Below, one piece after another: positions 1 through 12,771 of a stretch of DNA of 18,164 nucleotides. The stretch lies in the IMG/VR virus record IMGVR_UViG_3300014886_000120; one strand, 5' to 3'. Origin of the DNA: a virus. Lineage: Duplodnaviria > Heunggongvirae > Uroviricota > Caudoviricetes. Numbering within the stretch: position 1 is the stretch's first letter; each line of letters begins with the position of its first letter. The notes beneath the pieces are model-generated. The model was not told where the DNA came from. It worked only from the letters and a program-made list of their open reading frames with translations, and did not search any database. A program made the position numbers and the translations under genes.

Positions 1-1101
1 CATGTGTCTGGCTAAGTATTCTATAAACTTTCTGTAGTAGCCAAACTCTGCAGACTTATCCCTTAGATTGACAGCTAGCTCCCGGTACCCTTCAAGGTAG
101 TCTCTACTTTCTAGCTTGATATCATCAAGCACTTTCCATAGCTTCTCATTTATTATCAGGCCGTCTAGTTCGTTAGCTAGATCCCTAAAGATATCTCTGG
201 GCTTCTTCCTATGCTCTACCAGAGGAGCACCAAATGCCATATACTTGCCTACCCTGTCCATTACCTTTTTCAGGAACAGAGCTGACCATACATCGTCCAT
301 GCCTCTAATGTCACCATCAGAATATCTTACCATACTGGCATCATGTACTCTCATTGGGAGATAGTAGTAAGCCGGGAGTATTTCAGGTTTAAATGAAATG
401 TTCATAGACGACACTGGTATGAAAGTGTTCCTGGGCACAAGTATCTTCTCATACTTCAGCTCTAAAGTCCTGACTTTGGGTATTCCCTTTAGTCCTCCCT
501 GGTTAAGTATAGTGACTGCATTAAGGTCTGGTATGTTAGTCCATAATCCCTGGTTAAACACTACCTTGTTCATTGCATTTCCTATCTCCATGCCTTCACC
601 TTCAAGCTCTGGGACAGCTGAGTAAGGTAAGCCTCGTTGATACACTCTGCCACAGCTGTTCTCTACCTCCATGAAGTCCAGAGGGTTTATCCATTTAGCC
701 AGCTGAACCTGGACATCATATATTCCATAAGAGAGCAAGTGTTTCCCTACAAAGTCCTCACTGGACAGGGGATACGTATCATCGTCAAACGTCATGATAT
801 AGTCTGAGTTTCTGGCTACAAGGAAGGCAAAGCTGAGCTCAGCATGGTGTCTCTCAGGAATAACGTCCATATACTTTTCCAGTCCATTCTTTATGAACCA
901 GTCCTTCCTCTCTGATGGTCCATAGAACTCTATCTTGTTACATATCCTTCTGTTGTACCTCCTTACAGCTTTGTCTCCTTCATCTACCACTATTATCCTG
1001 ATATTGTCAAGTTCATGGTTGTATTTGACAAGGTTGTCTATATACTTCCTAAGGTTGTCAAGCTTGTTGATTGCAGCTGTAACCAGACTTATCATACCCA
1101 T
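1..1101 (-). CDS. GT75 / reversibly glycosylated polypeptide (RGP, UDP-arabinopyranose mutase-like) protein, 3' end outside window
   Basis: Manual translation from ATG at 1101 (TGATG overlap with the kinase stop, SD GAGGTGA) stays open for 367 codons to position 1. RGP motifs in order: IMTFDDDTY, YQRGLPYS, NQGLWTNIPDLNA, PVSSMNISF, GMDDVWSA, GAPLVEHRK. Confidence 0.85.
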   Translation of the reverse strand, partial: MGMISLVTAAINKLDNLRKYIDNLVKYNHELDNIRIIVVDEGDKAVRRYNRRICNKIEFYGPSERKDWFIKNGLEKYMDVIPERHHAELSFAFLVARNSDYIMTFDDDTYPLSSEDFVGKHLLSYGIYDVQVQLAKWINPLDFMEVENSCGRVYQRGLPYSAVPELEGEGMEIGNAMNKVVFNQGLWTNIPDLNAVTILNQGGLKGIPKVRTLELKYEKILVPRNTFIPVSSMNISFKPEILPAYYYLPMRVHDASMVRYSDGDIRGMDDVWSALFLKKVMDRVGKYMAFGAPLVEHRKKPRDIFRDLANELDGLIINEKLWKVLDDIKLESRDYLEGYRELAVNLRDKSAEFGYYRKFIEYLARHM

Positions 1102-2075
1102 CACCTCTTTTCATAAATGATACTTGTACCGTCAGAATCAAACCTGACTTCCACTTCCTTAAGGTTAGAGAGTACTTCTCTCACTCTGTCTTGATCTTTC
1201 CTTTCTACATACAAGAGTAGGAATCCCCCTCCTCCAGCTCCAGATATCTTGCCTCCTAGAGCTCCAGCCTTCATGGCCTTATGGTAGTACGAGTCTATTA
1301 TGGGGTTACTTATTCCCTTAGCCAGCTGTTTCTTGTATGTCCACCCCTGGTGAAGCATGTTACCTAGCTCACTTATGTCATTGTCCCTCAGCATGTCTCT
1401 TAGTTTGACAGCTTGATCTTTCATCTTGTCCAGTATCTCCATCCTGTTTGGAATGTTCCTAGCTTGATAAGGAAGGATAGTGTCTGAAGGTCTGGTAATA
1501 TTGGTATAGAACAGCATCAAGCTATCCTCGAGTTCGTTCAATGTGTTAGAGGATAGCTTTATAGGCTCAACTATTACACTCTCATCCTTGTTGAACTGTA
1601 TATAGTTCAGACCTCCAAAGCTAGCTGCATACTGGTCTTGCTTGCCACATGATTTCTTTAGTATGTCTATCTCCAGTCTACAAGCTTCCCTAGCCAGGAA
1701 CTCCTTGTTCTGGATGATACCTATGAACTTGTACAGTGCATTCAGAAGTCCTACTGACAAGCTGCCAGAAGAACCTAGTCCTGTACCTTTACCTGGTATG
1801 TCAGCCAGAGTGAGTATCTCAAGGTATTTCGGTACATCCACCATCCTGATAGCTTCCCTAATGAGGCCATGCTTTATCTCTTCTAGCTTGTCTGTTATCT
1901 CTGTCTCTGAATAGCTTATCCTGTAGCTGTCTTCAAACCTCTTCTTAGCTATCACATAAATGTAATACTGGATGGCAGTACTAACTACAGCTCCAAAGCC
2001 TGTCCTGTAGTATCCTGGTAGGTCAGTTCCTCCTCCTACAAAGCTTATCCTGACTGGAGTTCTGGATATTATCAT
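1101..2075 (-). CDS. hddA: GHMP-family sugar kinase, D-glycero-D-manno-heptose-7-phosphate 1-kinase (HddA)-like
   Basis: ISRTPVRISFVGGGTDL, PGKGTGLGSSGS (GHMP ATP loop), GKQDQYAASFGG, KISGAGGGGF. Start moved to ATG 2075 (ATGA overlap with the upstream stop). Confidence 0.85.
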   Translation of the reverse strand: MIISRTPVRISFVGGGTDLPGYYRTGFGAVVSTAIQYYIYVIAKKRFEDSYRISYSETEITDKLEEIKHGLIREAIRMVDVPKYLEILTLADIPGKGTGLGSSGSLSVGLLNALYKFIGIIQNKEFLAREACRLEIDILKKSCGKQDQYAASFGGLNYIQFNKDESVIVEPIKLSSNTLNELEDSLMLFYTNITRPSDTILPYQARNIPNRMEILDKMKDQAVKLRDMLRDNDISELGNMLHQGWTYKKQLAKGISNPIIDSYYHKAMKAGALGGKISGAGGGGFLLLYVERKDQDRVREVLSNLKEVEVRFDSDGTSIIYEKR

Positions 2076-2260
2076 CCTTGTCTCTCCCCTTTGCCAAACC
2101 ATCTCTCCCAGTCCTCATCTGTTACCTCTGGGAATAGATGCTGCCATTCCTCCTTGGTTATATCCCTTGAGACCCTTCCACATGTATAGCACAGTACTTT
2201 ACCGTCAAACAAAGAGTAGGACTTCCTAGTGCACCCACATTCGGGACACTTTATTGTCAA
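2072..2260 (-). CDS. Small Zn-ribbon protein (62 aa)
   Basis: CPECG...CYTCG; TTG start in a TTGA overlap preceded by GGAGGT; its stop overlaps the next start (ATGA). Confidence 0.75.
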   Translation of the reverse strand: MTIKCPECGCTRKSYSLFDGKVLCYTCGRVSRDITKEEWQHLFPEVTDEDWERWFGKGERQG

Positions 2261-2970
2261 GCCCTTGACCTCCTAGCTCTGAACCAGGGAACTACCCTTA
2301 CTTCAGGGAATGGCCATAGTCTGTCAACTGGACTGTGGAAGAACAGTCCGTACTCACCAAATAGCTCTCCATGATCAGAGGTTATCACTATGTCCTTGTC
2401 TGGACAAGCTTCCACTATTTTCTGGCAGTACTTCAGGGCTACAAGCAGGTTTGATATGTATGCCTTCTTGAGCTCCTCAACTGTTATTTGACCCTCAAAG
2501 AAGCCTTTCCCTATGTTCCAGTCGAAGGGCACCCTAGCTCTTCTGGGATGCATCTGTATCCCTTTAATGCTTGGGTTACCTATGTAGGGAGCATGTGGCT
2601 GTAGGAAGTGAGCTAGTATCCTCATCCCCGGATATTTCTCTACTGCCTTTATGGTCTCCTCTGCCATGACAGCTGGATCAGTAGTGGTAAGCTCTTCGTT
2701 CCACCCATAGTCCCACACATCAAGTATCACTGGGAAAATCTTGGCCCACTGGTTGTCACTGCGTAGTGAAGGGTGGCCAGACAGGTACACTATGTCTTTC
2801 TGGGGATAGTAGAAGTTCATCCTCCACCATATCTCTGTCACTGACCCTTTACTCCACCTCTTGTCCAGTCTGCCAGGTATCCTGTTTACATGCCTGAACA
2901 CATCATACCTGCATGCATCCAGTAGGAGTAGGATGTCCCACTTTGATGAGGGTATGTCCTGTACATGCAT
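2257..2970 (-). CDS. Alkaline-phosphatase/sulfatase superfamily protein
   Basis: LLLLDACRYD, HFLQPHAPY and ITSDHGE...GLFFH metal-binding motifs. No CxPxR formylglycine motif; SKGSVT is the candidate Ser/Thr nucleophile segment. Confidence 0.75.
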   Translation of the reverse strand: MHVQDIPSSKWDILLLLDACRYDVFRHVNRIPGRLDKRWSKGSVTEIWWRMNFYYPQKDIVYLSGHPSLRSDNQWAKIFPVILDVWDYGWNEELTTTDPAVMAEETIKAVEKYPGMRILAHFLQPHAPYIGNPSIKGIQMHPRRARVPFDWNIGKGFFEGQITVEELKKAYISNLLVALKYCQKIVEACPDKDIVITSDHGELFGEYGLFFHSPVDRLWPFPEVRVVPWFRARRSRA

Positions 2971-2973
2971 GAC

Positions 2974-3870
2974 TTATTCATCCCTCCAGTACTTCTCTTT
3001 AACCTTCCTTAGTCCTTCTTCCAGAGTAGAGAATCTGTACCCAAACGTTTCCTGGAACCAATTGTTGCTTAGCCACAAGTGTCTCGGTCTTACTCCGTCA
3101 AACATAAAGTCATCCAGACTGGCCTTTTCTATGAGGTCTTTGTTGAATCCAAAGACTTCAGCTATCATGCTGGCATATTCATACCTGCTTACACATGAGC
3201 TACCTACAGTATGGAAGGTTCCCTGTATATCACTCTCAGCCAATATAAGAATAGCTTGAGCTAGGTCATCCACAAAAGTGGGACAGCTGAACTGGTCTAT
3301 GAACGGTTTCACTGTCTTACCCTTCTTCAAGCTGTCTAGTACCCATCCAAGGAACCTGCTTTTTTCTGGGTTGCCATATATCAGTGAGGGTCTCACTATA
3401 TTGTATCTTATACCCAGACTTCTTACTATGTGTTCACCTTCCACCTTGGTTCTGGCATAGACATTCAGGGGGTTAACCAAGTCTTCTTCAGTATAAGGCT
3501 CTAGCTTGGTTCCATCAAACACATAGTCTGTAGAGGTGTAGATTAGCTTAGCCCCTATTCTCTTACATTCATATCCAACATACAGCATGCTTACTGCCTG
3601 TACAACACTGGCCTCTACTGGGTGCCTCTCACAATAGTCTACCCCAGGCACATTGATCACATTGACTACAACGTCTGGGCATGTTTCCCTTATCAGCTTG
3701 ACTGTACCAAGGACATCAGCAATGTCAAGCTTAGTATATCCCTCGGATATAGAACTGTTTACTACTGGTCTGCTTCTGTATGTTCCAATAACCTCATGTC
3801 CTTTCTCTATGGCCAGCTCAGCTAGTCTGCTGCCTGTAAGTCCACTGGCTCCAAGTATGAGTATCCTCAT
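2974..3870 (-). CDS. rmlD: dTDP-4-dehydrorhamnose reductase-like (NDP-4-keto-sugar reductase)
   Basis: GASGLTG Rossmann motif, YTSTDYVFDG, PLNVYARTK, FSCPTFVDDLA, G.FH, RP...LSN. Confidence 0.88.
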   Translation of the reverse strand: MRILILGASGLTGSRLAELAIEKGHEVIGTYRSRPVVNSSISEGYTKLDIADVLGTVKLIRETCPDVVVNVINVPGVDYCERHPVEASVVQAVSMLYVGYECKRIGAKLIYTSTDYVFDGTKLEPYTEEDLVNPLNVYARTKVEGEHIVRSLGIRYNIVRPSLIYGNPEKSRFLGWVLDSLKKGKTVKPFIDQFSCPTFVDDLAQAILILAESDIQGTFHTVGSSCVSRYEYASMIAEVFGFNKDLIEKASLDDFMFDGVRPRHLWLSNNWFQETFGYRFSTLEEGLRKVKEKYWRDE

Positions 3871-4397
3871 TTCTCTTTCCTCTTCTTGAGCTCTTCTACT
3901 ATCTTTCTATACGGCTTGTAGAAGCTCACAGTCTTTGGATGCTCAAAGAACTCTATGAACCAGCTGTCTGTCAAAGATACCAGCCAGTGGGGTATCCCTG
4001 GCTCAAACACTACAAAGTCTCCCTCGTTAAGGTAGTGTACCTTCTCTCCAGGTATGGTTACTTTGCCTCCAGAATAGTCTATTGTAACCTCAGGGCTATA
4101 CCTCTCTATGATGGCTAGCCTGCCCTGGAGGACCAGAGTGTATTGTCTGTGGCTATGGTAGTCTCCTCCCCTTACAGCTCCAGCCTTGGTGTACATTATC
4201 ATTAGCTCCCTTAACGGTTCATCATTGAACCTGAAGCTATACACCTTACCTCTACTGTCCTCCTGTTCAAACACACATCTGGTAAAGTCTCTGGGTAGGC
4301 TGCTCCATATTCTGGCTAGCTCCTCAACAGCTAGCTCCTCCCTTGGTATCAGTAGGGTATCCTTCAATTTCTTAACCATCTCTCTAAAGTTTACCAT
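3867..4397 (-). CDS. RmlC-like cupin (NDP-sugar epimerase/ketoisomerase-like)
   Basis: EDSRG, TKAGAVRGGDYH and PGIPHWL cupin motifs; lies between SDR and RmlD-like genes. Confidence 0.7.
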   Translation of the reverse strand: MVNFREMVKKLKDTLLIPREELAVEELARIWSSLPRDFTRCVFEQEDSRGKVYSFRFNDEPLRELMIMYTKAGAVRGGDYHSHRQYTLVLQGRLAIIERYSPEVTIDYSGGKVTIPGEKVHYLNEGDFVVFEPGIPHWLVSLTDSWFIEFFEHPKTVSFYKPYRKIVEELKKRKEK

Positions 4398-4400
4398 ATC

Positions 4401-5345
4401 CTATTCCTCCTTTACTTCTTTTATTCCATATGATGGACCGTCAATTATGGACTTTCCAGTCCTGTACTCGTAACACCTCTTTATGCCCTCATCCACATCC
4501 ACAAAGCTTTCAGGATCTAGACCAAGCATGTTCTTAGCTTTGGTCATATCTGAGATATATGAGAAGCACCAAGCTTGTTCTTCAACATACTTTACTCTGA
4601 ACTCCTTGATAGCTTGAGCCTTCTTTATCACCTCATTTATGGAGTATGGTCTTTCTGTACCTATAAGGAATATCTCATAGCTCCTATCCATCCCCTCAAA
4701 ATAATGGATACATTCATCAACTACTCTGCATATGTCGTCTACGTAAAGGAACTCCCTCACATGGTTGCCCTGGCAATACACCTTGAAGGTTAGGTTATTG
4801 TTCACCATACAGTCCACTATCTGCTGGATAATGTTCTTCTCTTCCTGGTCTGGACCATAGATTATGGTTGGTCTAATGACTATTCCCTGGACACCATATA
4901 GCTCGGAATATAGCTTGACTAGAGCTTCCCCAGTGGCCTTGCTGAGTCCATACGGATTGTCTGGATTTATTGGATCAAGCTCATTGAGTGGTAGGGCTAC
5001 TCTGGGTCCAACTACGTTCCATGCACTAAAGAACACCATCTTCCTCACTCCATGGCTTCTCATAGCTTCAAGGATGTTCAGGGTTCCAGTTATATTGGTG
5101 AATAAATACTGCCATGGAAGCTTATAGCTAGGCCTGTTCCCAGCTCTGGCAGCCAAATGGATTACAAGGTCGTCCTGTCCAAGATTGTTGCTGGTAAAGA
5201 AGGCTTCCACATCCTTCATGTTGGTGACATCAAGCTTCAGTCCTTCACCCTTAATGTCTGTAGAGAGAACATCATAGTGTCTCTGGAGATAGCTAACTAT
5301 GTGTCTCCCCACAAACCCTCTTCCTCCAGTAACTAGCACTCTCAT
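4401..5345 (-). CDS. NAD-dependent NDP-sugar epimerase/dehydratase (extended SDR)
   Basis: VTGGRGFVG, HLAARAG, TNITGTLNILE, YGLSK, RPTIIYGP, REFLYVDD. Confidence 0.9.
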   Translation of the reverse strand: MRVLVTGGRGFVGRHIVSYLQRHYDVLSTDIKGEGLKLDVTNMKDVEAFFTSNNLGQDDLVIHLAARAGNRPSYKLPWQYLFTNITGTLNILEAMRSHGVRKMVFFSAWNVVGPRVALPLNELDPINPDNPYGLSKATGEALVKLYSELYGVQGIVIRPTIIYGPDQEEKNIIQQIVDCMVNNNLTFKVYCQGNHVREFLYVDDICRVVDECIHYFEGMDRSYEIFLIGTERPYSINEVIKKAQAIKEFRVKYVEEQAWCFSYISDMTKAKNMLGLDPESFVDVDEGIKRCYEYRTGKSIIDGPSYGIKEVKEE

Positions 5346-6316
5346 AAATGTCCCCTCCCACTGTTTATTTCAAGGAGTATCCTCTCAAACTCATTTATGG
5401 TATTCTCGTATGTACGTTCACTGGCCTTCCTGAGTGCAGCTCTCCTTAGCTGCTCATAGTCTGGTGAACTGATAACCTCAAGCATCTTTTCAGCTAGAAT
5501 ATCTACGTCTCTTTCAATAATGTATCCATCTACTCCATTCTCTATGAAGTCATCCGTACCTTTGGATGTAGATATGACTGGAGTACCACATGCCATGGCC
5601 TCTATCACTGGGAGTGGGGAACTCTCAAGGCTGCTTGAACATACATAGATCATTCCTGAAGAGTAGAGCTCGGCTAGCTCGTCATCTGTGAGTCTAGGAT
5701 GGTAAATCACCCTCTTCTCCTTGTATGGAAGGTTACCAAATGTGTGTAGCTCAAGATCAGGCCTCTCTTCCAGAGCTTTGTGGAATGCCGGTATCAGCAT
5801 GTCCAGGAAGCCTTTGAAGTCCTGGTATGCACTCAGCCCTATTATCCTGTTCCTGTGTTTCTGGACCTTCCTTGGATAGAATATTTTGGGGTCTACTCCT
5901 GGAATAATCACATACGGGTTTCTCTTCTTATGCTTGCTCCTAATCTCATTAGCTAGCCATGTAGAGGTACATATCAGGTACAGGGGAAAATCATATGTCC
6001 TTTTGGCTCTCATGTCACCAAATATGGTCTCGTAATGCTGGCATAGATATACCTTGTACTTGGATTTGCACCTCATTGCAGTATAAGCTGTGGGCCACCA
6101 TGTAGCTATGGGTATCTCATTCCTCTCTACACTCTTCACTTGTTCAGGTATAGTCTTCATCTCTTGTATCTCCACTGGAGTGTCCAGCCATTTTATGTAA
6201 CGGTTGGTTATTATCCTCACTTCATGTCCCTTCTTGTACAATCCAGTAGCTAGGGTGATGATGGTCCTGTTGCCTCCGGTAGGACCTGTTTGATCAGTAA
6301 GGAACACTACCCTCAT
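5342..6316 (-). CDS. Glycosyltransferase family 4 (GT-B)
   Basis: TGGNRTI at the N-terminus, DFKG, ESSPLPVIEAMACGTPVIS. Confidence 0.9.
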   Translation of the reverse strand: MRVVFLTDQTGPTGGNRTIITLATGLYKKGHEVRIITNRYIKWLDTPVEIQEMKTIPEQVKSVERNEIPIATWWPTAYTAMRCKSKYKVYLCQHYETIFGDMRAKRTYDFPLYLICTSTWLANEIRSKHKKRNPYVIIPGVDPKIFYPRKVQKHRNRIIGLSAYQDFKGFLDMLIPAFHKALEERPDLELHTFGNLPYKEKRVIYHPRLTDDELAELYSSGMIYVCSSSLESSPLPVIEAMACGTPVISTSKGTDDFIENGVDGYIIERDVDILAEKMLEVISSPDYEQLRRAALRKASERTYENTINEFERILLEINSGRGHL

Positions 6317-7155
6317 ATCATTCCCCTCACTGTAGCAGCTAGCACCATCTTGTCATTCCACCCAAACAGCTCAGGCTTCTCCTTGACCTTCTCCTTAAGC
6401 CAGTCTATCCATTTAGACCTGAATATCCTAAGGTTTCTAATCTGGGCTTGGTTCCACATCCTCTGATCCTGGGCAAAGTGTGTAGCAGTCTCATAGTGGT
6501 AGAGAGCTACCTTGCCATCATAGTAAATTCTGTATCCGTTGTCTAGCAGCTCCATGCACTTGTCAGTGTCCCCAAATGATCCGACCTTGTATACTGAGTC
6601 CATCTTACCAAAGAGCTCTCTCTTAGCTACTACTAAGGCAAATGTTATACACCCTATCTCTTCAAGTGTACTGTACTTCTCTCTTGGTTCAAACCTTCCC
6701 CTATGATAGAATGGCCATGTGAATCCATCAAATGCATTTGGAGCTAGATAGCTACCAGCTGACTGGATTGTGTCGTTTGGGTACAGTAGCTTAGGCCCTA
6801 CCAGGGCTGCCTTACTGTCTCTCTCAAGCACCCTTACAAGCTTTGTTAGCCATCTTATCTTGGGAACTATAATATCATTGTTCAACAGACACACATAGTC
6901 TTCCTTACAATACTCTAAAGCTGTGTTGACTCCTTCAGTAAAGCCACTGTCAGGCATCTTGTTCCTATGGACTATGACATTCTTGTACCTTGAGGTTAGC
7001 TCTTTTATGAACTGTTCAGTTCCCTCTTCTGTAGAGGCATTATCATAGAATATTAGATTGAACGGATACTTGGTGTTCCTGTATAGTGTCTGGACACATG
7101 GTCTGGTGAACTTGAGGTTGTTCCAGTTTATGAGGATAATATCTACCTTCTTCAT
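6313..7155 (-). CDS. Glycosyltransferase family 2 (GT-A)
   Basis: IILINWNN, FYDNAS, GFTEGVN, LLNNDI, GFGDTD-like acceptor motif (SFGDTDKC), LYHYE. Confidence 0.9.
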   Translation of the reverse strand: MKKVDIILINWNNLKFTRPCVQTLYRNTKYPFNLIFYDNASTEEGTEQFIKELTSRYKNVIVHRNKMPDSGFTEGVNTALEYCKEDYVCLLNNDIIVPKIRWLTKLVRVLERDSKAALVGPKLLYPNDTIQSAGSYLAPNAFDGFTWPFYHRGRFEPREKYSTLEEIGCITFALVVAKRELFGKMDSVYKVGSFGDTDKCMELLDNGYRIYYDGKVALYHYETATHFAQDQRMWNQAQIRNLRIFRSKWIDWLKEKVKEKPELFGWNDKMVLAATVRGMI

Positions 7156-8411
7156 CTCAAGGCCTCCCTTATCTTAGCCTCCCATAGCTTGTCCTTCTCT
7201 TCAGAGATTCCAGCTATCTGTCTGCCTGGCAGATTAGACTGCTCCTCAATTATCTTGTCCAGTAGGGGTACCCACTTGTCCCTCACTAGATCATCCCAGT
7301 TGAACTGGATAGCAAACTGTCTTGATAGCCTGGCATATTTCTTCCTTTCCTTGTCTTTGAAGTAAGCCCTCTCCATACACTTGTATATTGACTCTGGATC
7401 TATGACAGCTGTCACTGCATTGATTGGAGTGTCAATGAACGTCTTAACATCAGCTAGCCACCCATGCCCATATATCAGTTCAGGCATAGAGCTGAACATA
7501 GCTCCTATCACAGGAACTCCACAAGCTTGAGCTTCAATTATTGGCAGTCCAAACCCTTCCCTACGACTAGCTGAGCACAGCACATCAAAGCAGTTATAAA
7601 GTAGACACATTTCACTGTCCTTTATGCCTGTCTGGAAAAGCAATGGATCCTGGGTTATAACTACATCCTGTAGTCCAAACTTCTTTATGAACAGTTCCAA
7701 CTGTAATCCCCTACCGTCAGATGGGTTAGAGAACAAGAAATACTTCACATACTCCCTCTTAACATCTGGGTTGTTGTCAAAGAACATCTGCAAAGCTCTG
7801 AACTCCTCCACAAAGCTCTTCCTGCTCTCCTTGTCTGAGTTGGCAGCTACCTTACCGAATATGAATATGTCTTCTGGCAATCCCATAGCTTTCCTAGCTT
7901 GTTCCTTAGGTATTGGATAGTATGTAGTTACGTCTACTCCATGTGGGATATACTCAAATTCTATACCATATTTAGCCCATTCCTTCTGCTGGAACTTTGA
8001 TGGACTCACAAGATAGTCATAGTTCCTCATCATTTCCTGTATCTCTTCTGGGTAGTCCACATGATCTAACGGTCCATAGGAAGCTGAACATGGAAGGTCT
8101 CTGGAGAACCATTGGAATGCCCATGGATCAGTGTGTAACCATGCACACTTTATTTTCAAAGCTTTGTAGTAATACTTACAGCTTGTCTCTCCAAACGTAC
8201 CAAACTTAGAGGGCAATACTGGAATGTCGTTTATGAGTAGTACTCCTCCAGGCTCTACACCATAATAGGCTGATACTGTAAAGTTGTACCCGAACTGTTT
8301 AAACCTGGTTAGCAAGTTTCTGGTAACATTTCCATATCCAGATCTGATGTGTGGAGCTACACTGTGCCAGAGAAATCTAAACTGCTCTCTCTCCTTCATG
8401 CTAACCAACAA
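7152..8411 (-). CDS. Glycosyltransferase family 4 (GT-B)
   Basis: SVAPHIRSGYG, IPHGVD, RKSF, SRREGFGLPIIEAQACGVPVI. Start is TTG 8411 (after AGGTGA) or ATG 8399. Confidence 0.9.
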   Translation of the reverse strand: MLVSMKEREQFRFLWHSVAPHIRSGYGNVTRNLLTRFKQFGYNFTVSAYYGVEPGGVLLINDIPVLPSKFGTFGETSCKYYYKALKIKCAWLHTDPWAFQWFSRDLPCSASYGPLDHVDYPEEIQEMMRNYDYLVSPSKFQQKEWAKYGIEFEYIPHGVDVTTYYPIPKEQARKAMGLPEDIFIFGKVAANSDKESRKSFVEEFRALQMFFDNNPDVKREYVKYFLFSNPSDGRGLQLELFIKKFGLQDVVITQDPLLFQTGIKDSEMCLLYNCFDVLCSASRREGFGLPIIEAQACGVPVIGAMFSSMPELIYGHGWLADVKTFIDTPINAVTAVIDPESIYKCMERAYFKDKERKKYARLSRQFAIQFNWDDLVRDKWVPLLDKIIEEQSNLPGRQIAGISEEKDKLWEAKIREALR

Positions 8412-8445: not shown

Positions 8446-8454
8446 TATATTTAA
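8446..8454 (-). promoter_or_regulatory. Archaeal TATA-like box (TTAAATATA) upstream of the glycosylation operon
   Basis: In the AT-rich 52-nt gap about 35 nt upstream of the GT4 start; the identical 9-mer occurs at 16586-16594. Confidence 0.55.
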
Positions 8455-8463
8455 GGGTTAGAA

Positions 8464-8718
8464 CTAGGATATCAGCTTGCTTAGCTCTCTTACCGGATAT
8501 CTCTGCCTCCTTATCTTCTTTAGTAGCTCCATATCATAGTTCTTCTTTATGTAACGTTCTCTGGCTACATGATAGGCTACATCTATTGAGGAATAGTACC
8601 TAAGCTCTTCTTCAGTAAGCAGCTCTTTGCATATCATTATCTCCCTACGTCTCCTGTCCGATAAGCCCTCAATATAGTCCTGATCTTTAAGCTTGTCAAA
8701 CAAGCTTCTAAACTTCAT
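8464..8718 (-). CDS. Hypothetical protein (84 aa, charged)
   Basis: ATG start overlapping the deaminase stop, co-oriented, fills the gap; no recognisable motif. Confidence 0.65.
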   Translation of the reverse strand: MKFRSLFDKLKDQDYIEGLSDRRRREIMICKELLTEEELRYYSSIDVAYHVARERYIKKNYDMELLKKIRRQRYPVRELSKLIS

Positions 8719-9121
8719 TCTTATACCACCTGTTTCTGGGGAAGGGCATCGGATATAGCTCTTTCAGTGTAGCTTCAAACCTTATGTTGCCTTTCTGGTC
8801 TACTACTGTAATAAGCAAGTCTGGACTGGTAAACTCCCATAGGTACTGTCTACATGATGCACATGCCGGATAGATGTTTGTTTGTTTCTCATTGAATGAA
8901 TAGACTATGACTATACCTAAGAAGTCTGATGGATCTACATCAGCATCCAGAGCTTTAATGAGAGCTACTTCTTCAGCATGAAAGCCCTTGTGTATCTTGT
9001 TCTCAATGTTAAACCCAGTAAAGAGCCTATCCTTAGTATAAAGACAAGCCCCTACTCTGGATCTGAATGTGATGGCCCTCTCCATGGCTTTTATAGCTTC
9101 CCTTATTGCAGCTTTCTTCAA
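8708..9121 (-). CDS. cdd: Cytidine/deoxycytidine deaminase family protein
   Basis: RVGACL, GFNIEN, HAEE and PACASCRQ Zn motifs. Start moved to TTG 9121 (TTGA overlap with the NDT-like stop), giving about 137 aa. Confidence 0.85.
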   Translation of the reverse strand: MKKAAIREAIKAMERAITFRSRVGACLYTKDRLFTGFNIENKIHKGFHAEEVALIKALDADVDPSDFLGIVIVYSFNEKQTNIYPACASCRQYLWEFTSPDLLITVVDQKGNIRFEATLKELYPMPFPRNRWYKNEV

Positions 9122-9579
9122 AGCAGTTCCCTCTTGAGCTTCAATATGCCTCTTTCCAGTCCCTTCAGTGTCTTGTATATCCTTCCAAAATACAATAGCC
9201 ATGGATGAGCTTCCATTACTGAGTATATTAGTGAAGGCTGGTATATCAGGACTGGTTTCTTGAGTACATGTGAGGTATAGAATATCTCCATTGCACACCC
9301 TATTGAAGGATACGGCACAATAGCTACGGTGCCATCACATTGCTGGATAGCTATCATGTCCGTCTCTACTACTTTCCTATAGTACTTTCTTAGAAACCTT
9401 GAGTATTCAGATGGAGAGCTAGCTTTTGAGTTGTACTCGTTGATCCATTTGGACTCCCATCCGTCATAGAAGGGATTGTGCATTACCACATCAAGCTTCT
9501 TTTCTATCCCTATCTCCCATTCCCTTACCTTTATACGTTCAGGGAAGGGATGGGAAAGGTAGAGCTTAAGCCTCCTCAA
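9118..9579 (-). CDS. Nucleoside 2-deoxyribosyltransferase / dNMP N-glycosidase (NDT/DNPH1/MilB-like)
   Basis: LYLSHPF, HNPF, DMIAIQQCDGTVA, SIGCAMEIFY, LKKPV; TTG start after GGGGTGA. Confidence 0.75.
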   Translation of the reverse strand: MRRLKLYLSHPFPERIKVREWEIGIEKKLDVVMHNPFYDGWESKWINEYNSKASSPSEYSRFLRKYYRKVVETDMIAIQQCDGTVAIVPYPSIGCAMEIFYTSHVLKKPVLIYQPSLIYSVMEAHPWLLYFGRIYKTLKGLERGILKLKRELL

Positions 9580-9594
9580 AGCTCACCCCTTCAT

Positions 9595-10806
9595 CTATCC
9601 AGTCTCATATAGATTGAAGTGCTGCCTCAATATTTCAGCATAGTACCTCATGTTCTTGTACTCTAGAGCTGGATCTGAAAGCTCAGCTTTTACCACTTCA
9701 TATCCTGGCCTTATAGGTATAACAGAGCCTTCATGCCTGCTGCATAGCAACAGAAGTATACCGGTAGGTCTCTGGTGTATGCTCCCATGCCATTTCTGGA
9801 ATCCTCCAGTCTCACTTATCTTTATGCCTTCGAGCTCCAGCTCTGGTGTGAGCCAGTGACAGTGTGCAGTGACTATCCGTTCAACTATCAGTCCCTCTCT
9901 GGAATACTCACTAATGGTCTTCCATAAATCTCTAATTAGCTGGTAAGAGACAGGATAGTAGCTTGATCCTCCATATCCATGAGTGAACATTACATTGTAG
10001 TGCCCAATAGGCTCAGCTATGTCAAGTAGCAGATGTTTGCTTGAGTATTTAGCTTTGCTCCCAAGGCATTTCTTGAGGTACAACATAAAGTTTGATTCTT
10101 GACTTTCATGGGTACCCTTTATCAAATAAATACTGGAGACATCTATGCCCTCTTCCTTTATAGACTCTAAGGTCTTCTTCAACACTCTTTCAGCTAAGAA
10201 GACCTGCCAGTGTCCCCTCTGTACCAGGTTCTCAAATATCTGGTACTTGTATACGTCTTTACCAGAAACTATGTCTCCATTACATACCAGGTTGAACCTG
10301 GCTATGTCATAGTTCTTCCTAAGGAATCTAAGCACTCTCTTAAGGTTGTTTATACAGCTCCAGTATGTCTCTGGTAAGTGTGTCTCATGTCCCAGATGCA
10401 AATCAGAAATCACTAAGGTTAGGACAATGTCCTTCTCCCTCTTTTCTAACAGCTCCAGAGGCAAAGGTACTACTATATCCTCTCTGGGAGTGAACTCGTA
10501 TCGTACTGGTTCAACAGTATCCTGTAATGACTTTATCAGGTCATCTAGTGTAAAGGTAGACTCTTCAGGTATAACAGACTCGTCAATCTCAATATTCCCC
10601 AAAGCATTGTTACTTCTCTTGTACAAGTTGGACACTGCAGCTGAAATGGTTCTCCTCTTTATACCAGCCTTCTTCATCCATGAAAGTATAGTTGTTTTGT
10701 TTACCCCAAGAAGCTCAGCTATTTCAGACAGAGACATGCCTCTGTTCCAGTATAGCTCATTTAATGTTTCAGCTAAATCTGGTTTCTTACTATCTCTACT
10801 TCCCAT
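9595..10806 (-). CDS. N-terminal HTH fused to a calcineurin-like metallophosphoesterase
   Basis: HTH: LYWNRGMSLSEIAELLGVNKTTILSWM. MPP motifs: ISDLHLGH, NGDIVSG, KGTHE, FTHG, AHCH. Confidence 0.8.
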   Translation of the reverse strand: MGSRDSKKPDLAETLNELYWNRGMSLSEIAELLGVNKTTILSWMKKAGIKRRTISAAVSNLYKRSNNALGNIEIDESVIPEESTFTLDDLIKSLQDTVEPVRYEFTPREDIVVPLPLELLEKREKDIVLTLVISDLHLGHETHLPETYWSCINNLKRVLRFLRKNYDIARFNLVCNGDIVSGKDVYKYQIFENLVQRGHWQVFLAERVLKKTLESIKEEGIDVSSIYLIKGTHESQESNFMLYLKKCLGSKAKYSSKHLLLDIAEPIGHYNVMFTHGYGGSSYYPVSYQLIRDLWKTISEYSREGLIVERIVTAHCHWLTPELELEGIKISETGGFQKWHGSIHQRPTGILLLLCSRHEGSVIPIRPGYEVVKAELSDPALEYKNMRYYAEILRQHFNLYETG

Positions 10807-10815
10807 ACAATCTAC

Positions 10816-11499
10816 CTACCTTATTACAACTTTATCCACATATTTTAATAAGCATTGCTTTATTTCCTCAAGCTCTTCCATGGTATAAGTTGTTTTGGTT
10901 CTGTAGCTTGGATTTAATGTCTTATTATTCCTAAACATCTGGAGTATATAAAGTTTAGCCCCTTTTAGCTCCTTCCCTATCTGGAGAATGTCTCTTACAG
11001 ACAGAAGCTCCTTTACCAGGGTGGTCCTGAATTCATAGCTGATGTCTGAATGGATTATTAGATCTTTGGACTTGGTAATGTTTACAGAATCTACTGGTGT
11101 ACCAGTTACTATGCTATATTTTGAGATGGGAGCTTTGTAGTCCATTGCTACATAGTCTATCAAGCTACAGTCCAATAGCTCCTTAAGCCTGTATGGAAAA
11201 GTACCATTAGTTTCTATCATGACTTTGTATCCAAGCTCCTTAACTAGGCTGCAGAAATACCCTATATCTCTGTGTATCAATGGTTCACCCCCAGTAATCA
11301 CTACACTTTCTAGCTTGCCAGTCCGTCTCTTAAGGAAGGAGATTACAGAGTCCACAGTTATGGATGGAGTAGCTCCCTTTACTAGCTCCGGATTCTGGCA
11401 ATACGGGCATCTTAGGTTACATCCTATGGTAAAGATTACAGCTGAGAAATAGCCTGGATATTCTATCATACTGAAGGGCAACAGTCTGGCTATCCTCAA
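10816..11499 (-). CDS. nrdG: Anaerobic ribonucleoside-triphosphate reductase activating protein (radical SAM)
   Basis: SMIEYPG...GCNLRCPYCQN, VVITGGEP, ETNG, YEFRTT. TTG 11499 preferred over GTG 11508 because GGGGTGA then acts as the SD. Confidence 0.9.
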   Translation of the reverse strand: MRIARLLPFSMIEYPGYFSAVIFTIGCNLRCPYCQNPELVKGATPSITVDSVISFLKRRTGKLESVVITGGEPLIHRDIGYFCSLVKELGYKVMIETNGTFPYRLKELLDCSLIDYVAMDYKAPISKYSIVTGTPVDSVNITKSKDLIIHSDISYEFRTTLVKELLSVRDILQIGKELKGAKLYILQMFRNNKTLNPSYRTKTTYTMEELEEIKQCLLKYVDKVVIR

Positions 11500-11510
11500 A
11501 TGGTTCACCC

Positions 11511-11822
11511 CTATAGCATTTCCATTATCAAGAACTTCATAAGATCTAGGCCTGTGGTGATGCTTCTACTTGATTTTCCCTTAATTATACTAACCTTGAG
11601 TGTCCCATTTGACGAGACAAACAGTGTCATCTCCACATTGTCTCCAGCCTTTAAGCTATTAGCTATCCCAGATGGTGCATAGCCCCTGACTATCTTGACA
11701 TACCCATTGTTCTTTCTTCCTATACCAACATGGAAGACTTTCCTGTGCTTCCCAAGTATTGTTCCCACAGTTGATATAACCTTCAATGTGAGTTCCCTTC
11801 CCTTAGCTCCAGATACACACAA
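11511..11822 (-). CDS. Hypothetical basic protein (103 aa)
   Basis: Co-oriented ORF filling the PHP-nrdG gap; start uncertain; no motif recognised. Confidence 0.6.
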   Translation of the reverse strand: MCVSGAKGRELTLKVISTVGTILGKHRKVFHVGIGRKNNGYVKIVRGYAPSGIANSLKAGDNVEMTLFVSSNGTLKVSIIKGKSSRSITTGLDLMKFLIMEML

Positions 11823-11840
11823 ACTTCACTAAGCTATATC

Positions 11841-12404
11841 CTAGAGATTGGCTGTTCCTTTTATGGTGAACCTCCCTTTCTTGAGGTTCTCTATTACCTC
11901 TTCTTTGGTGAACTCGTCTAGCTCCATTTCTATCCAGTTCTTCCCTATCATGCTAGCTGAGTGTGTATCATCCACACCATACCTTATGACACCAGGTATC
12001 TCTCCATTGAACTGTCTCTGCCCTCTGTTGCATACCTCAGCTCCGTCTAGCTTGTAGCTTCTGCATATCTCTCGTATCTGGTCATTAGTCAGAGACCATC
12101 TTCCAGGATGAGCTAGCCAGTCCACAGATGCAAGATCAAGCCTATCTCTCCAGTCCAAGCTCCTACCATTCCTTTCCAGAGGTAGGTCTAGCTTGATGAT
12201 ATGGTACCTGAACGTCCATTCTACTCCATTTATGAATATGATATCATCCGGTATCTGTAGCTCATGGGGTAGAGTCCAAGTGTTATGATCAGTGATAGCT
12301 ATAACTTTGAAGCCCCAGCTCTTTAAGGTGTAGAGTAGCTCGTGTGGGCTAAGGTGTCCATCACTAAGAATGGTGTGGTTATGTAGGGAACACTTAACTA
12401 TCAT
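11841..12404 (-). CDS. PHP-family metal-dependent phosphoesterase
   Basis: HNHTILSDG, ITDHN, GVEW, AHP, GVDDTH; SD AGGAGG. Confidence 0.88.
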   Translation of the reverse strand: MIVKCSLHNHTILSDGHLSPHELLYTLKSWGFKVIAITDHNTWTLPHELQIPDDIIFINGVEWTFRYHIIKLDLPLERNGRSLDWRDRLDLASVDWLAHPGRWSLTNDQIREICRSYKLDGAEVCNRGQRQFNGEIPGVIRYGVDDTHSASMIGKNWIEMELDEFTKEEVIENLKKGRFTIKGTANL

Positions 12405-12415
12405 CTCTTGTCCTC

Positions 12416-12739
12416 CTATAATTCTTCAGCTAGTCTCTTACCTATGCACTTCTCTGGCTCTCTACACTTCCACTTTCCGTTCTTGTAGTAATGGCCAATG
12501 GTAAGTTCCTCCAATGTGTCAAAGGAAAGAGTACTCTCACATGTTACAGGGAAACGTATTACTTCATCACCATACTTTAGGAGGTATAGAAAAGGTGTTT
12601 CACTTCCAACATGATATGGAGGTAAGACTACCTCGTCACTTATCTCAAAACAGCTACTGCATCTTTCTAGATCTGGGGAGCTATAGATTGTTAGGAACTT
12701 TCTACACTTCATACATTTGTCTCTTATATATTCCATCAA
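12416..12739 (-). CDS. Cys-rich, probably Zn-binding hypothetical protein
   Basis: CMKC...CSSC plus three more Cys; SD GGAGGG; start TTG 12739 or ATG 12736. Confidence 0.65.
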   Translation of the reverse strand: MMEYIRDKCMKCRKFLTIYSSPDLERCSSCFEISDEVVLPPYHVGSETPFLYLLKYGDEVIRFPVTCESTLSFDTLEELTIGHYYKNGKWKCREPEKCIGKRLAEEL

Positions 12740-12771
12740 TATCCCTCCATTACTTACTGGAACATGTCGAG

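Follow-up and report, generated by a model that had tools for sequence, protein, structure and literature searches.

What does a tailed virus make with a long run of genes for the synthesis, transfer and decoration of sugars, and onto which target would the product be placed? The run lies in a window (the whole stretch of DNA that was analysed) of 18,164 nucleotides from an uncultured, archaeal-type tailed virus of marine sediment. The reading that we prefer, and hold with about even confidence, is that a single viral operon encodes 15 soluble proteins that would assemble, in the host cytoplasm, a heptose-containing glycan with decorations and put it on the virus particle. Its candidate promoter and the genes inside the window are the following.

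8447..8454, minus strand: TATA-like box TTAAATAT, 43 nt upstream of the GT4a start codon; candidate archaeal-type promoter of the operon
7152..8411, minus strand: GT4a, GT-B retaining-type glycosyltransferase, first operon gene (Pfam Glyco_trans_1_4 and Glycos_transf_1)
6313..7155, minus strand: GT2 (GT-A fold) glycosyltransferase (PF00535, E 2.5e-18)
5342..6316, minus strand: GT4b, second GT-B glycosyltransferase (PF13692 and PF00534, E 1e-18 to 1e-19)
4401..5345, minus strand: extended SDR, NDP-sugar 4,6-dehydratase/4-epimerase type (PF01370, E 1.5e-43)
3867..4397, minus strand: cupin (Cupin_2, E 6e-7)
2974..3870, minus strand: RmlD-like NDP-4-keto-sugar reductase (PF04321, E 2.4e-62)
2257..2970, minus strand: small, soluble alkaline-phosphatase-superfamily (AlkP) protein, sulfatase- or phosphoethanolamine-transferase-like (structure match)
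2072..2260, minus strand: zinc-ribbon protein, 62 aa (weak zinc-ribbon Pfam matches, E about 1e-3)
1101..2075, minus strand: HddA-like GHMP sugar kinase, heptose-7-phosphate 1-kinase type (GHMP_kinases_N and _C)
1..1104, minus strand: GT75/RGP-family protein (PF03214, full-length, 73.7 bits against a cut-off of 23.8)

A previous sequence-only reading had described a translationally coupled run of at least ten genes. All ten were found, and the true total is 15, as the run extends 3.9 kb beyond window position 1 with genes for a B12 radical-SAM enzyme, GmhA, a CysD-like enzyme, a small nucleotidyltransferase and GmhB. The GT75 protein (379 aa in full) itself crosses this border, with its final 11 codons and stop codon outside the window. 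Among the ten genes, the seven overlaps and two 3-nt gaps reported before are reproduced if the HddA-like kinase starts at the ATG at 2075, which is its likely start and gives an ATGA overlap; its longest open reading frame (1101-2102) would give a 31-nt overlap instead. The 4-nt overlaps in this stretch are ATGA (five times), TTGA and GTGA, with ATGA at both ends of the GT2 gene, and the zinc-ribbon gene is translationally coupled to both of its neighbours. Over the whole operon, 14 of 14 junctions measure 12 nt or less, compared with 56% of same-strand junctions in the rest of the genome, a difference expected by chance with a probability of about 3e-4; 4-nt overlaps make up 9 of the 14, short overlaps elsewhere 13%. 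The TATA-like box previously noted before the run is indeed present, and motifs of its class precede 8 of the 54 genes with gaps of at least 40 nt, where about 0.45 would be expected. No transmembrane helix was found in any of the 15 proteins.

The contig is viral throughout, with archaeal-type replication genes. The 128-kb IMG/VR record holds the large terminase and major capsid protein genes that the earlier reading had proposed to look for in the flanks (two HK97-type capsid genes), together with tail genes, portal, PolB, RadA and ligase. Upstream of the operon, the window contains these features.

8708..14874, minus strand: nucleotide-metabolism block (context; Pfam), comprising
8708-9298, minus strand: dCMP-deaminase-domain protein
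9595-10806, minus strand: HTH-metallophosphatase
10816-11508, minus strand: NrdG-like radical SAM protein
11841-12404, minus strand: PHP-like protein
12772-14874, minus strand: NrdD
14931..16331, minus strand: portal protein (PHROG portal families, weak, E 2.5e-5 and 5.6e-5)

The claim that the same element carries a portal gene survives: the PHROG matches, although weak, are joined by structural similarity to Portal_Mu/SPP1-portal clusters in the Atlas (TM 0.60-0.71 across about 350 residues) and by orthologues at 36-55% identity in the equivalent position of relatives, while the Pfam search gave no portal match. Single enzymes of the run have their nearest named homologues in cells (archaea, DPANN, CPR bacteria), as would a cellular surface-glycan locus joined to viral DNA by misassembly, or a provirus lying beside host genes; we consider such an origin extremely improbable. 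It is contradicted by viral genes on both flanks, within 60 nt and 210 nt, by a composition that fits the rest of the genome (GC3 of 0.47 in the operon versus 0.42 +/- 0.05), by the recovery of 99-100% of sampled words in two independent public data sets, and by related viral genomes with direct terminal repeats, in which the same slot is occupied by a sugar island whose first gene is orthologous. A cellular S-layer locus beside a small provirus, which the earlier reading had named as the finding that would speak against it, is therefore not what the flanks hold. No RNA runs containing the sequence were found.

As a viral operon, what could it synthesize? The earlier reading held that the virus makes its own activated rare sugar and had pointed to gmhA, gmhB and hddC as genes to look for outside the window. 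With GmhA, GmhB and a nucleotidyltransferase immediately past the border, the predicted heptose genes are present, with the exception of HddC: no HddC/RmlA-type NTP_transferase was found in the genome. Given these adjoining genes, the viral flanks and the support for the portal, synthesis of the virus's own activated heptose is plausible. All heptose-pathway matches lie under the NCBIfam equivalog cut-offs; the HddA-like kinase, for instance, matches HddA (NF049969) at E 4.4e-51 with 174 bits, against a cut-off of 600. The nucleotidyltransferase (152 aa, cytidylyltransferase fold) scores against ethanolamine-phosphate and glycerol-3-phosphate cytidylyltransferases at least as well as against RfaE domain II, and could make a CDP-alcohol instead, in which case heptose-1-phosphate would be left without an activating enzyme.

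Three genes of the run are candidates for remodelling such a sugar. The extended SDR, whose top NCBIfam matches (RmlB, GalE, LegB) are all well under cut-offs and whose PDB neighbours are GalE and dTDP-glucose dehydratases, is a candidate for the first tailoring step on NDP-heptose. The cupin gave no dTDP_sugar_isom match and no informative PDB match, and is a candidate 3- and/or 5-epimerase of the 4-keto intermediate because it is located between two SDRs, the second being the RmlD-like protein (209.9 bits against TIGR01214 rmlD, cut-off 224). The AlkP-fold protein, with no Pfam match, resembles archaeal sulfatase-like clusters in the ESM Atlas (TM 0.83-0.87), and its SDHGE...H motif aligns weakly with EptA/MCR-2 (E 0.3); it may be the transferase that adds a sulfate or phospho group as decoration. 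A CysD-like gene adjoins an AlkP-superfamily gene in four of the five contexts examined, the neighbour in the fifth being a weak profile match. As for the GT75 gene, assignment to the family stands (PF03214), while its role as a transferase is in doubt: the nearest structures are 7yua/7xpr (deposited as 'Transglycosylse', E 3e-22) and the plant UDP-arabinopyranose mutase 8cid (E 1.6e-5), and only five homologues were found, at 36-40% identity. Its possible functions are NDP-sugar pyranose-furanose mutase, transglycosylase and self-glycosylating primer. For the multi-residue glycan proposed before, the virus has three standard glycosyltransferases and this GT75-like protein.

From these genes we infer a route, including its substrates, step order and target. 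Host sedoheptulose-7-phosphate would be converted to heptose-1-phosphate by the GmhA-like isomerase, the HddA-like kinase and the GmhB-like phosphatase, and then to NDP-heptose by the cytidylyltransferase-fold enzyme. The SDR, the cupin and the RmlD-like reductase would remodel the sugar by oxidation or dehydration, epimerisation and reduction, as in Campylobacter. A further modification, perhaps ring contraction or transglycosylation together with C-methylation, would come from the GT75-like protein and the B12 radical-SAM enzyme, and a non-sugar group, sulfate via APS being the likeliest, from the CysD-like enzyme and the AlkP-fold protein. Finally, GT4a, GT2 and GT4b would assemble the glycan, with GT4a selecting an acceptor that is viral and conserved, most probably the C-terminal tail, rich in Ser/Thr, of the major capsid protein MCP1.

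The comparison with relatives bears directly on this target. The gene order PolB, protease, portal, NrdD, HTH-phosphatase, GT4a, variable sugar island and convergent head block is shared by relatives L022-L030, three of which are rated complete and have terminal repeats. Conservation of the neighbourhood, put forward earlier as a check, is thus borne out, complete genomes included: the first gene of the island is always a GT4a orthologue, the only island gene conserved across relatives, and the rest is swapped. The island adjoins nucleotide-metabolism genes, a position compatible with a DNA target too. Members of the GT4a family (422 representatives at E<1e-30) come almost exclusively from viruses: relatives lie on 508 viral contigs of IMG/VR, versus four full-length matches in 185,579 species genomes. 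The AF2 model of GT4a (pLDDT 91) has its best PDB match in the chlorovirus NY2A glycosyltransferase 3oy2 (TM 0.74/0.79, 18% identity), and GT4a is our candidate for the target-recognising enzyme.

Of the 64 GT4a-family loci with enough upstream DNA, 28 gave a detectable MCP-like gene (36 did not; the search seeds came from upstream neighbours), always in the same direction as the GT4a homologue and ending 77-1482 bp upstream of it. Many of these proteins carry short Ser/Thr/Pro-rich C-terminal tails (e.g. DASTPS, DATAPSS, AATAPTS, TVETPFSC), in a survey that covered GT4a-linked capsid proteins only. GT4a and the capsid gene are not direct neighbours in the present virus or its close relatives, where GT4a belongs to a convergent block some 14 kb upstream of the capsid gene; the 3' end of the operon is about 2.7 kb from MCP1, which ends in SSDSTYPAA (NSDSTYPAS in the nearest orthologues). 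Mycobacteriophages are described as bearing C-terminal glycans on their capsid and tail-tube subunits (Freeman et al. 2023, Cell Host Microbe, PMC10527164, as related in PMC12619734 and PMC11256854). Because of the conserved slot with GT4a, the capsid linkage of its family and the Ser/Thr/Pro tails, the virion, with the capsid likeliest, appears to be the best-supported target, and the relatives would favour it over DNA or the host surface.

The soluble transferases might instead remodel a host surface glycan by acting on dolichol-linked oligosaccharides at the cytoplasmic face, with export by the host flippase and oligosaccharyltransferase, so that altered S-layer or receptor glycans block superinfection; we regard this as unlikely, at roughly one chance in five. 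Cellular glycan loci with flippases and PMT/DUF2206-type membrane proteins do contain GT4 and GT2 enzymes as well as homologues of the AlkP-like and CysD-like proteins, the variable content of the island resembles surface-antigen diversification, and Haloferax sulfates a dolichol-linked hexose (PMC3892788). However, the operon encodes no membrane protein, initiating phosphoglycosyltransferase, flippase or oligosaccharyltransferase, the last two having been suggested for the flanks, and the almost wholly viral GT4a family is linked to capsid genes, not to host-type loci. Lysogenic seroconversion is not indicated, since no integrase was detected.

Less probable still is hypermodification of viral DNA, in which a heptose-containing mono- to trisaccharide on a hydroxylated or hydroxymethylated base would evade host nucleases. 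The operon directly follows NrdD, NrdG and the dCMP-deaminase-domain gene, all 15 of its proteins are soluble, and phage GT-A/GT-B clusters place hexose, HexNAc, heptose and Kdo glycans on 5hmC, heptose transfer in one of them needing a cytidylyltransferase and a GT-B enzyme (Pyle et al. 2024, Cell Rep; preprint 10.1101/2023.12.21.572611); the related arabinosyl-5-hydroxycytosine route shares the logic of isomerase, kinase, HAD phosphatase and nucleotidyltransferase (PMC13326640). The base hydroxymethylase of the known route to glycosylated DNA, which the earlier reading had thought of, is missing, however: no thymidylate-synthase-type hydroxymethylase or hydroxylase was found in the genome or in five relatives (four rated complete), with control genomes positive, nor a C5 DNA methyltransferase or ThyX in the genome, nor TET/JBP in a search that had no positive control. 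Pyle et al. regard transferases without such a neighbouring gene as less likely to act on DNA, and the GT4a family is linked to capsid genes.

Among known systems, the GDP-D-glycero-alpha-D-manno-heptose pathway (GmhA, HddA, GmhB, HddC) has GmhA-, HddA- (GHMP) and GmhB-like counterparts here, but its HddC guanylyltransferase does not; the operon's sole nucleotidyltransferase has the cytidylyltransferase fold of the ADP-heptose route (HldE/RfaE domain II), so the viral pathway would be a hybrid. Heptose tailoring in Campylobacter reportedly uses an SDR oxidase/dehydratase, a cupin epimerase and an SDR reductase (work of Raushel and Creuzenet), and an SDR, cupin and SDR trio is likewise encoded within the operon. 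Giant viruses of eukaryotes use their own sugar-nucleotide synthesis and cytoplasmic glycosyltransferases for the particle (chlorovirus capsid glycans, Mimivirus fibril sugars), with fucose, rhamnose, viosamine and bacillosamine. The present virus is predicted to encode both functions too, while hosts and sugars differ, and GT4a shows no detectable sequence orthology with 3oy2 past the GT4 fold. The phage DNA-glycan clusters likewise combine soluble GT-A/GT-B enzymes with sugar-activation genes, but their defining feature is an adjacent gene for a 5-methylpyrimidine dioxygenase or a homologue of thymidylate synthase (10.1101/2023.12.21.572611), the latter not found here or in the four relatives rated complete. 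The O-glycosylation cassettes of the mycobacteriophages Che8, Corndog and Myrna, in the accounts of PMC10527164 given by PMC12619734 and PMC11256854, consist of few genes and use host sugar nucleotides, whereas the operon of this archaeal-type virus counts 15 genes, among them those for a putative de novo route to heptose and for its predicted tailoring and decoration. Both encode soluble glycosyltransferases of their own, and where those cassettes, by the same accounts, glycosylate the C-termini of capsid and tail-tube proteins, many GT4a-linked capsid genes end in Ser/Thr/Pro tails.

The window is the reverse strand of bases 77043-95206 within one IMG/VR virus record of 128,201 bp, and all its sizeable ORFs lie on the minus strand. 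The sequence-only reading had placed a coupled sugar synthesis, transfer and decoration operon of ten or more genes at 1-8411. Pfam, NCBIfam and the ESM Atlas bore out those ten genes. Five more coupled genes follow past window position 1, which makes the run longer than first noted.

Genes of the 15-gene operon (L006, a locus of the same genome; unless stated otherwise, assignments come from Pfam, NCBIfam and ESM Atlas)
7152-8411, minus strand: GT4 glycosyltransferase, first gene (GT4a)
6313-7155, minus strand: GT2 glycosyltransferase
5342-6316, minus strand: GT4 glycosyltransferase (GT4b)
4401-5345, minus strand: extended SDR
3867-4397, minus strand: cupin (Cupin_2 match)
2974-3870, minus strand: RmlD-like reductase (210 bits, cut-off 224)
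2257-2970, minus strand: AlkP-fold protein, 237 aa (no Pfam match; Atlas model TM 0.83-0.87 to archaeal sulfatase-like clusters)
2072-2260, minus strand: Zn ribbon
1101-2102, minus strand: HddA-like GHMP kinase (NF049969 HddA)
1-1104, minus strand: GT75/RGP protein (PF03214)
Beyond window position 1, minus strand: B12-binding radical-SAM enzyme, 466 aa
L006:1649-2215, window minus strand: GmhA-like SIS isomerase, 188 aa
L006:2212-3051, window minus strand: CysD-like PAPS-reductase-family protein, 279 aa (PRK05253, 241 bits, over cut-off)
Beyond window position 1, minus strand: cytidylyltransferase-fold nucleotidyltransferase, 152 aa
L006:3528-4070, window minus strand: GmhB-like HAD-IIIA phosphatase, 180 aa, last gene

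All 14 junctions of the run measure 12 nt or less, against 56% of the same-strand junctions elsewhere, giving a chance probability of about 3e-4, and nine of the 14 are 4-nt overlaps. Within the window, there are seven 4-nt overlaps and two 3-nt gaps if the HddA-like gene starts at the ATG at position 2075. GGAGG- or GGTG-like motifs precede most operon starts, and a TTAAATAT box, of a motif class about 18-fold enriched upstream of genes in the genome, is found 43 nt upstream of the first start codon. The GC3 of the operon (0.47) is inside the genome range (0.42 +/- 0.05). Window and genome sequences differ at two bases, 2752 and 2761, both within the AlkP-fold gene. Between the operon end and the head block (the convergent capsid-gene block past the operon 3' end) lies a zinc-ribbon frame, CxxC...CxxC, of about 55 codons (L006:70-280; genome ~99090-99280) with no ATG, GTG or TTG start, which may be a remnant or an unusual-start gene.

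Extending the contig brought to light virion genes: the record encodes a large terminase, a minor tail protein, a tail-fibre-like protein and two HK97-type major capsid paralogues, the latter in a convergent block starting 210 nt past the operon. The 466-aa protein at 14931-16331, previously read as the portal, keeps that assignment. Its Atlas model matches clusters with Portal_Mu, Phage_portal or SPP1_portal at TM 0.60-0.71 over 340-365 residues, PHROG gives weak portal matches (E 2.5e-5), and the place of its gene is conserved among relatives; Pfam portal families gave none at E 0.01. A 596-aa gene sits between the two capsid paralogues (L006:6767-7840 and L006:10166-11242, minus strand; 357 and 358 aa), and both paralogues are retained in the relatives G001 and G002. 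Between the operon and MCP1, one of the two major capsid proteins of this virus (genome 101767-102840, minus strand), lie four small genes of the head block, none with a match in PHROG or Pfam.

Replication is encoded by archaeal-type genes: PolB, a RadA that has an HhH domain at its N-terminus, and an ATP-dependent DNA ligase of three domains. Together with the TATA-like boxes, these suggest a virus archaeal in type. Scanning species genomes with RadA for a hint of the host gave nothing close, and no tRNAs were found in the genome. The record is classed as linear. Its ends share a 693-bp direct repeat at 98% identity with 13 mismatches (genome 1-693 and 127509-128201; end loci L001 and L007), so the genome may be complete, as a terminally redundant or circularly permuted molecule in a mixed-strain assembly, despite a CheckV completeness estimate of 70%. 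The stretch is contained in sediment and seawater metagenomes; no RNA set is listed among these data sets, which says nothing on expression. Neither megablast of the whole window nor tblastn of the portal matched any of 50,697 phage records.

The 693-aa protease-like protein (16602-18164) carries a LAGLIDADG intein. Related viruses have homologues free of the intein, 330-370 aa long (L012:15515-16516, on a virus-like contig; a 350-aa gene in the related loci L022/L023), which supports an interruption of this gene by an intein. An N-terminal PHROG 'thymidylate synthase' match on the same gene was set aside as probably intein; the genome yielded neither ThyA nor ThyX. A 1575-aa protein (L007:8236-12963, minus strand) in the minus-strand late block of virion genes matches metal-dependent hydrolase, ATP-dependent DNA ligase, NrdD-like and terminase-like segments in PHROG, and may be intein-rich or fused. 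At window 8708-9579, a 196-aa dCMP-deaminase-domain ORF shares 180 nt with an ORF of 153 aa that weakly matches a nucleoside 2-deoxyribosyltransferase-like protein; the start of one ORF or the other is probably misassigned.

Together, the GmhA-like, HddA-like and GmhB-like proteins, all of them below NCBIfam equivalog cut-offs, would be the signature of a heptose route from sedoheptulose-7-phosphate. The four best NCBIfam matches of the GmhA-like protein are GmhA models (E 5e-26 to 3e-19; best score 91.5 bits, cut-off 209), DiaA matches more weakly, and no KdsD/KpsF is listed among its matches. The kinase matches NF049969 HddA best (E 4.4e-51; 174 bits, cut-off 600), followed by a fucokinase domain, while the GmhB-like phosphatase reaches 155 bits for PRK08942 (cut-off 178) and exceeds the cut-off for a HAD-IIIA subfamily domain. 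We rejected an arabinofuranose route (isomerase, kinase, HAD phosphatase and nucleotidyltransferase, as in RB69/DLP3): the best four matches of the SIS protein are to GmhA, not arabinose-5-phosphate isomerase, and the HddA-like kinase also disfavours it.

The genes gmhA, gmhB and hddC had been suggested for the flanks; GmhA-like and GmhB-like genes are there, and HddC, the guanylyltransferase of the GDP-D-glycero-alpha-D-manno-heptose pathway (GmhA-HddA-GmhB-HddC), is not, as the HddC/RmlA-type NTP_transferase (PF00483) is unmatched across the 128-kb genome by a search positive in 14 of 14 control genomes. The sole nucleotidyltransferase in the genome, the 152-aa cytidylyltransferase-fold protein, is the only candidate activating enzyme. 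It scores 65.7 bits for RfaE domain II (cut-off 181.5) and 68.8 bits for TagD; in the PDB it is closest to ethanolamine-phosphate cytidylyltransferase. The ADP-L-glycero-beta-D-manno-heptose route (GmhA-HldE-GmhB-HldD) does not fit: the kinase is GHMP, not PfkB, and the RfaE-II match is no better than TagD. Because heptose transfer in one phage gene cluster needs a cytidylyltransferase-type enzyme (Pyle et al., 10.1101/2023.12.21.572611), a hybrid activation by the GHMP kinase and the cytidylyltransferase-fold enzyme is plausible.

The tailoring genes do not make up the dTDP-L-rhamnose pathway (RmlABCD). The genome has no RmlA-type NTP_transferase, the SDR reaches 117 bits where RmlB requires 365, the cupin matches Cupin_2 and not PF00908 (dTDP_sugar_isom), and the RmlD-like reductase is the sole Rml component near its cut-off. 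Known heptose tailoring uses an SDR, cupin and reductase set, which is mirrored by the SDR, cupin and RmlD-like trio of the operon. The GT75 protein belongs to PF03214 (73.7 bits, cut-off 23.8; profile positions 70-340 of 342); since its nearest solved relatives are PDB entries deposited as 'Transglycosylse', followed by plant UDP-arabinopyranose mutase, it may not be a conventional transferase. Only five homologues were found, all on short contigs with no readable gene context.

The least certain step is decoration, where the CysD-like and AlkP-fold proteins would act as a sulfate-activating and -transferring module. The CysD-like protein is 55-63% identical to CysD-annotated proteins of DPANN archaea, CPR bacteria and Thorarchaeota. 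In four of the five neighbourhoods examined, its gene has an alkaline-phosphatase-superfamily gene (Sulfatase or Phosphodiest) beside it or overlapping it, and in the fifth (L013) the adjacent 242-aa gene has a weak AlkP-like profile match (E 5e-6). Cellular glycan loci make up three of these neighbourhoods; another is L012, a virus-like contig of distant relationship (contexts of the pair include L012, L013, L018 and L019). Homologues of the AlkP-fold protein also occur within cellular glycan loci. One homologue is fused to an APS-kinase domain. The pair may be an undescribed sulfate module that works without CysN, APS kinase or a classical sulfotransferase. In one Altiarchaeota genome the pair stands alone. 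The Haloferax sulfation factor Agl7 was considered as a possible identity of the AlkP-like protein; the Haloferax homologue lies in a different glycan locus.

An exhaustive HMMER search with GT4a gave 422 representatives at E<1e-30. Full-length relatives are present on 508 viral contigs in IMG/VR, against four full-length matches in 185,579 species genomes. The GT4a model has a pLDDT of 91, with a chlorovirus glycosyltransferase as nearest solved structure. In the more distant family, the gene just upstream is a major head protein by PHROG in four of five loci tested. Using these PHROG-identified neighbours as seeds and counting loci with at least 2.5 kb upstream (n=64), we detected an MCP-like gene in 28, by a search that is incomplete since HK97-type capsids are too diverse and the seeds were upstream neighbours; in all 28 it is co-directional and ends 77-1482 bp before the GT4a homologue. 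The four full-length relatives in bacterial MAGs had no MCP by the same seeds. In the studied virus, island and head block converge, and no capsid gene lies directly upstream of the island.

Related viral loci with a sugar island in the same slot (L022-L030) were obtained from the neighbourhood of the best GT4a match and from alignment-based IMG/VR scans; single-protein IMG/VR scans with GT75, portal or GT4a had no match, and the alignment-based scan alone was productive. Among the relatives, G001, G002 and G004 are genomes rated complete that end in direct terminal repeats. In most relatives the gene order is kept in full or for the most part: PolB, protease-like gene, portal, NrdD, HTH-metallophosphatase, GT4a and 7-12 more genes, followed by the convergent head block where the retrieved DNA extends far enough; L029 and L030 keep PolB alone upstream of GT4a. 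GT4a orthologues, 38-52% identical, are the first island gene in every relative, whereas the other island genes differ from those of the studied virus. A Pfam census of 62 island proteins from eight relatives counted ten radical-SAM proteins (six with SPASM, four with B12 domains), eight SDRs, five each of GT2, GT1/GT4 and Anp1-like transferases, three each of DegT aminotransferases and hexapeptide acyltransferases, two NTP_transferases and one PAPS-reductase-family protein. BLAST with GmhA, HddA and GmhB of the studied virus found no match in the 14 loci compared, a search that distant homologues would escape.

In many GT4a orthologues, between one and four insertions of some 330-450 aa interrupt the sequence at recurrent sites (proteins P0248-P0275; L021:1817-5749, L027:9008-11158 and L028:5178-7415 in homologue loci), near residues 23, 93-100, 191 (VAAN|C), 261 and 291 (GFGL|C...HN|C). 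The insertions have intein-like ends, with Pfam intein and LAGLIDADG matches, marked faint, in L021; GT4a of the studied virus has none. That this glycosyltransferase is an intein hot spot suggests that GT4a is a strongly conserved core gene.

Considering the target of the glycan, we give virion glycosylation an even chance or slightly better. Many capsid proteins end in short Ser/Thr/Pro/Ala tails, as seen among GT4a-linked MCPs; MCP1 ends in SSDSTYPAA, its closest orthologues in NSDSTYPAS and another orthologue in NLYPATIT. Mycobacteriophages bear glycans on the C-termini of capsid and tail-tube subunits, the sole experimentally established phage case (Freeman et al. 2023, as cited in PMC12619734 and PMC11256854). 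The Ser/Thr/Pro tails, with the capsid linkage of the GT4a family, are indirect evidence for putative C-terminal O-glycans of this kind. The operon could instead remodel the host surface, which we consider improbable: neither an integrase nor a membrane component was found in support, and none of the 15 operon proteins has a membrane-helix-type hydrophobic segment. Glycosylation of the viral DNA is less probable still, and quite unlikely. The DNA-glycan clusters of Pyle et al. are defined by a glycosyltransferase with a thymidylate-synthase-type hydroxymethylase, or by a cytosine methyltransferase with a 5mYOX/TET dioxygenase. The sequence-only reading had proposed looking for a base hydroxymethylase; the thymidylate-synthase type (PF00303), the known entry point, is missing from this genome and from all five relatives searched, of which four are rated complete; the controls were positive. 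No C5 methyltransferase (PF00145) was found, nor a TET match (PF12851), the latter in a search without a valid positive control.

Virion glycosylation leads to a broader proposal, which we advance tentatively and hold to be rather doubtful as a whole. GT4a would represent a capsid-glycosyltransferase family, almost virus-only, anchoring hypervariable islands in hundreds of bacterial and archaeal tailed viruses and giving an O-antigen-like, strain-specific virion coat. Here the material of the coat would be a modified heptose made by the virus, possibly sulfated by a CysD-like sulfate adenylyltransferase and an AlkP-fold transferase without CysN, APS kinase or classical sulfotransferase. If the capsid is coated, about 10% of the 128-kb genome of this sediment virus is given over to making and decorating its own heptose glycan, and relatives of the virus would vary the coat one gene at a time around a single retained anchoring enzyme. 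The surface of the virion would then be under strong selection, for example by host receptors, defence lectins, grazing or particle stability. Testable points are the hybrid heptose activation, the candidate capsid-tail acceptor motif and the CysD-like and AlkP-fold pair that recurs in the glycan loci of viruses as well as of DPANN archaea and CPR bacteria.

In conclusion, virus-encoded glycosylation of the particle is established in giant viruses and mycobacteriophages, and glycan-modified phage DNA is also known. To our knowledge, particle glycosylation has not been shown for archaeal tailed viruses, and the archaeal-virus literature searched mentions isolated glycosyltransferases only. What would be new, as predicted from the genes, is an operon of 15 genes for a heptose, its tailoring and its decoration, carried by an archaeal-type tailed virus, with a putative hybrid activation route and a conserved, almost virus-only anchoring transferase.
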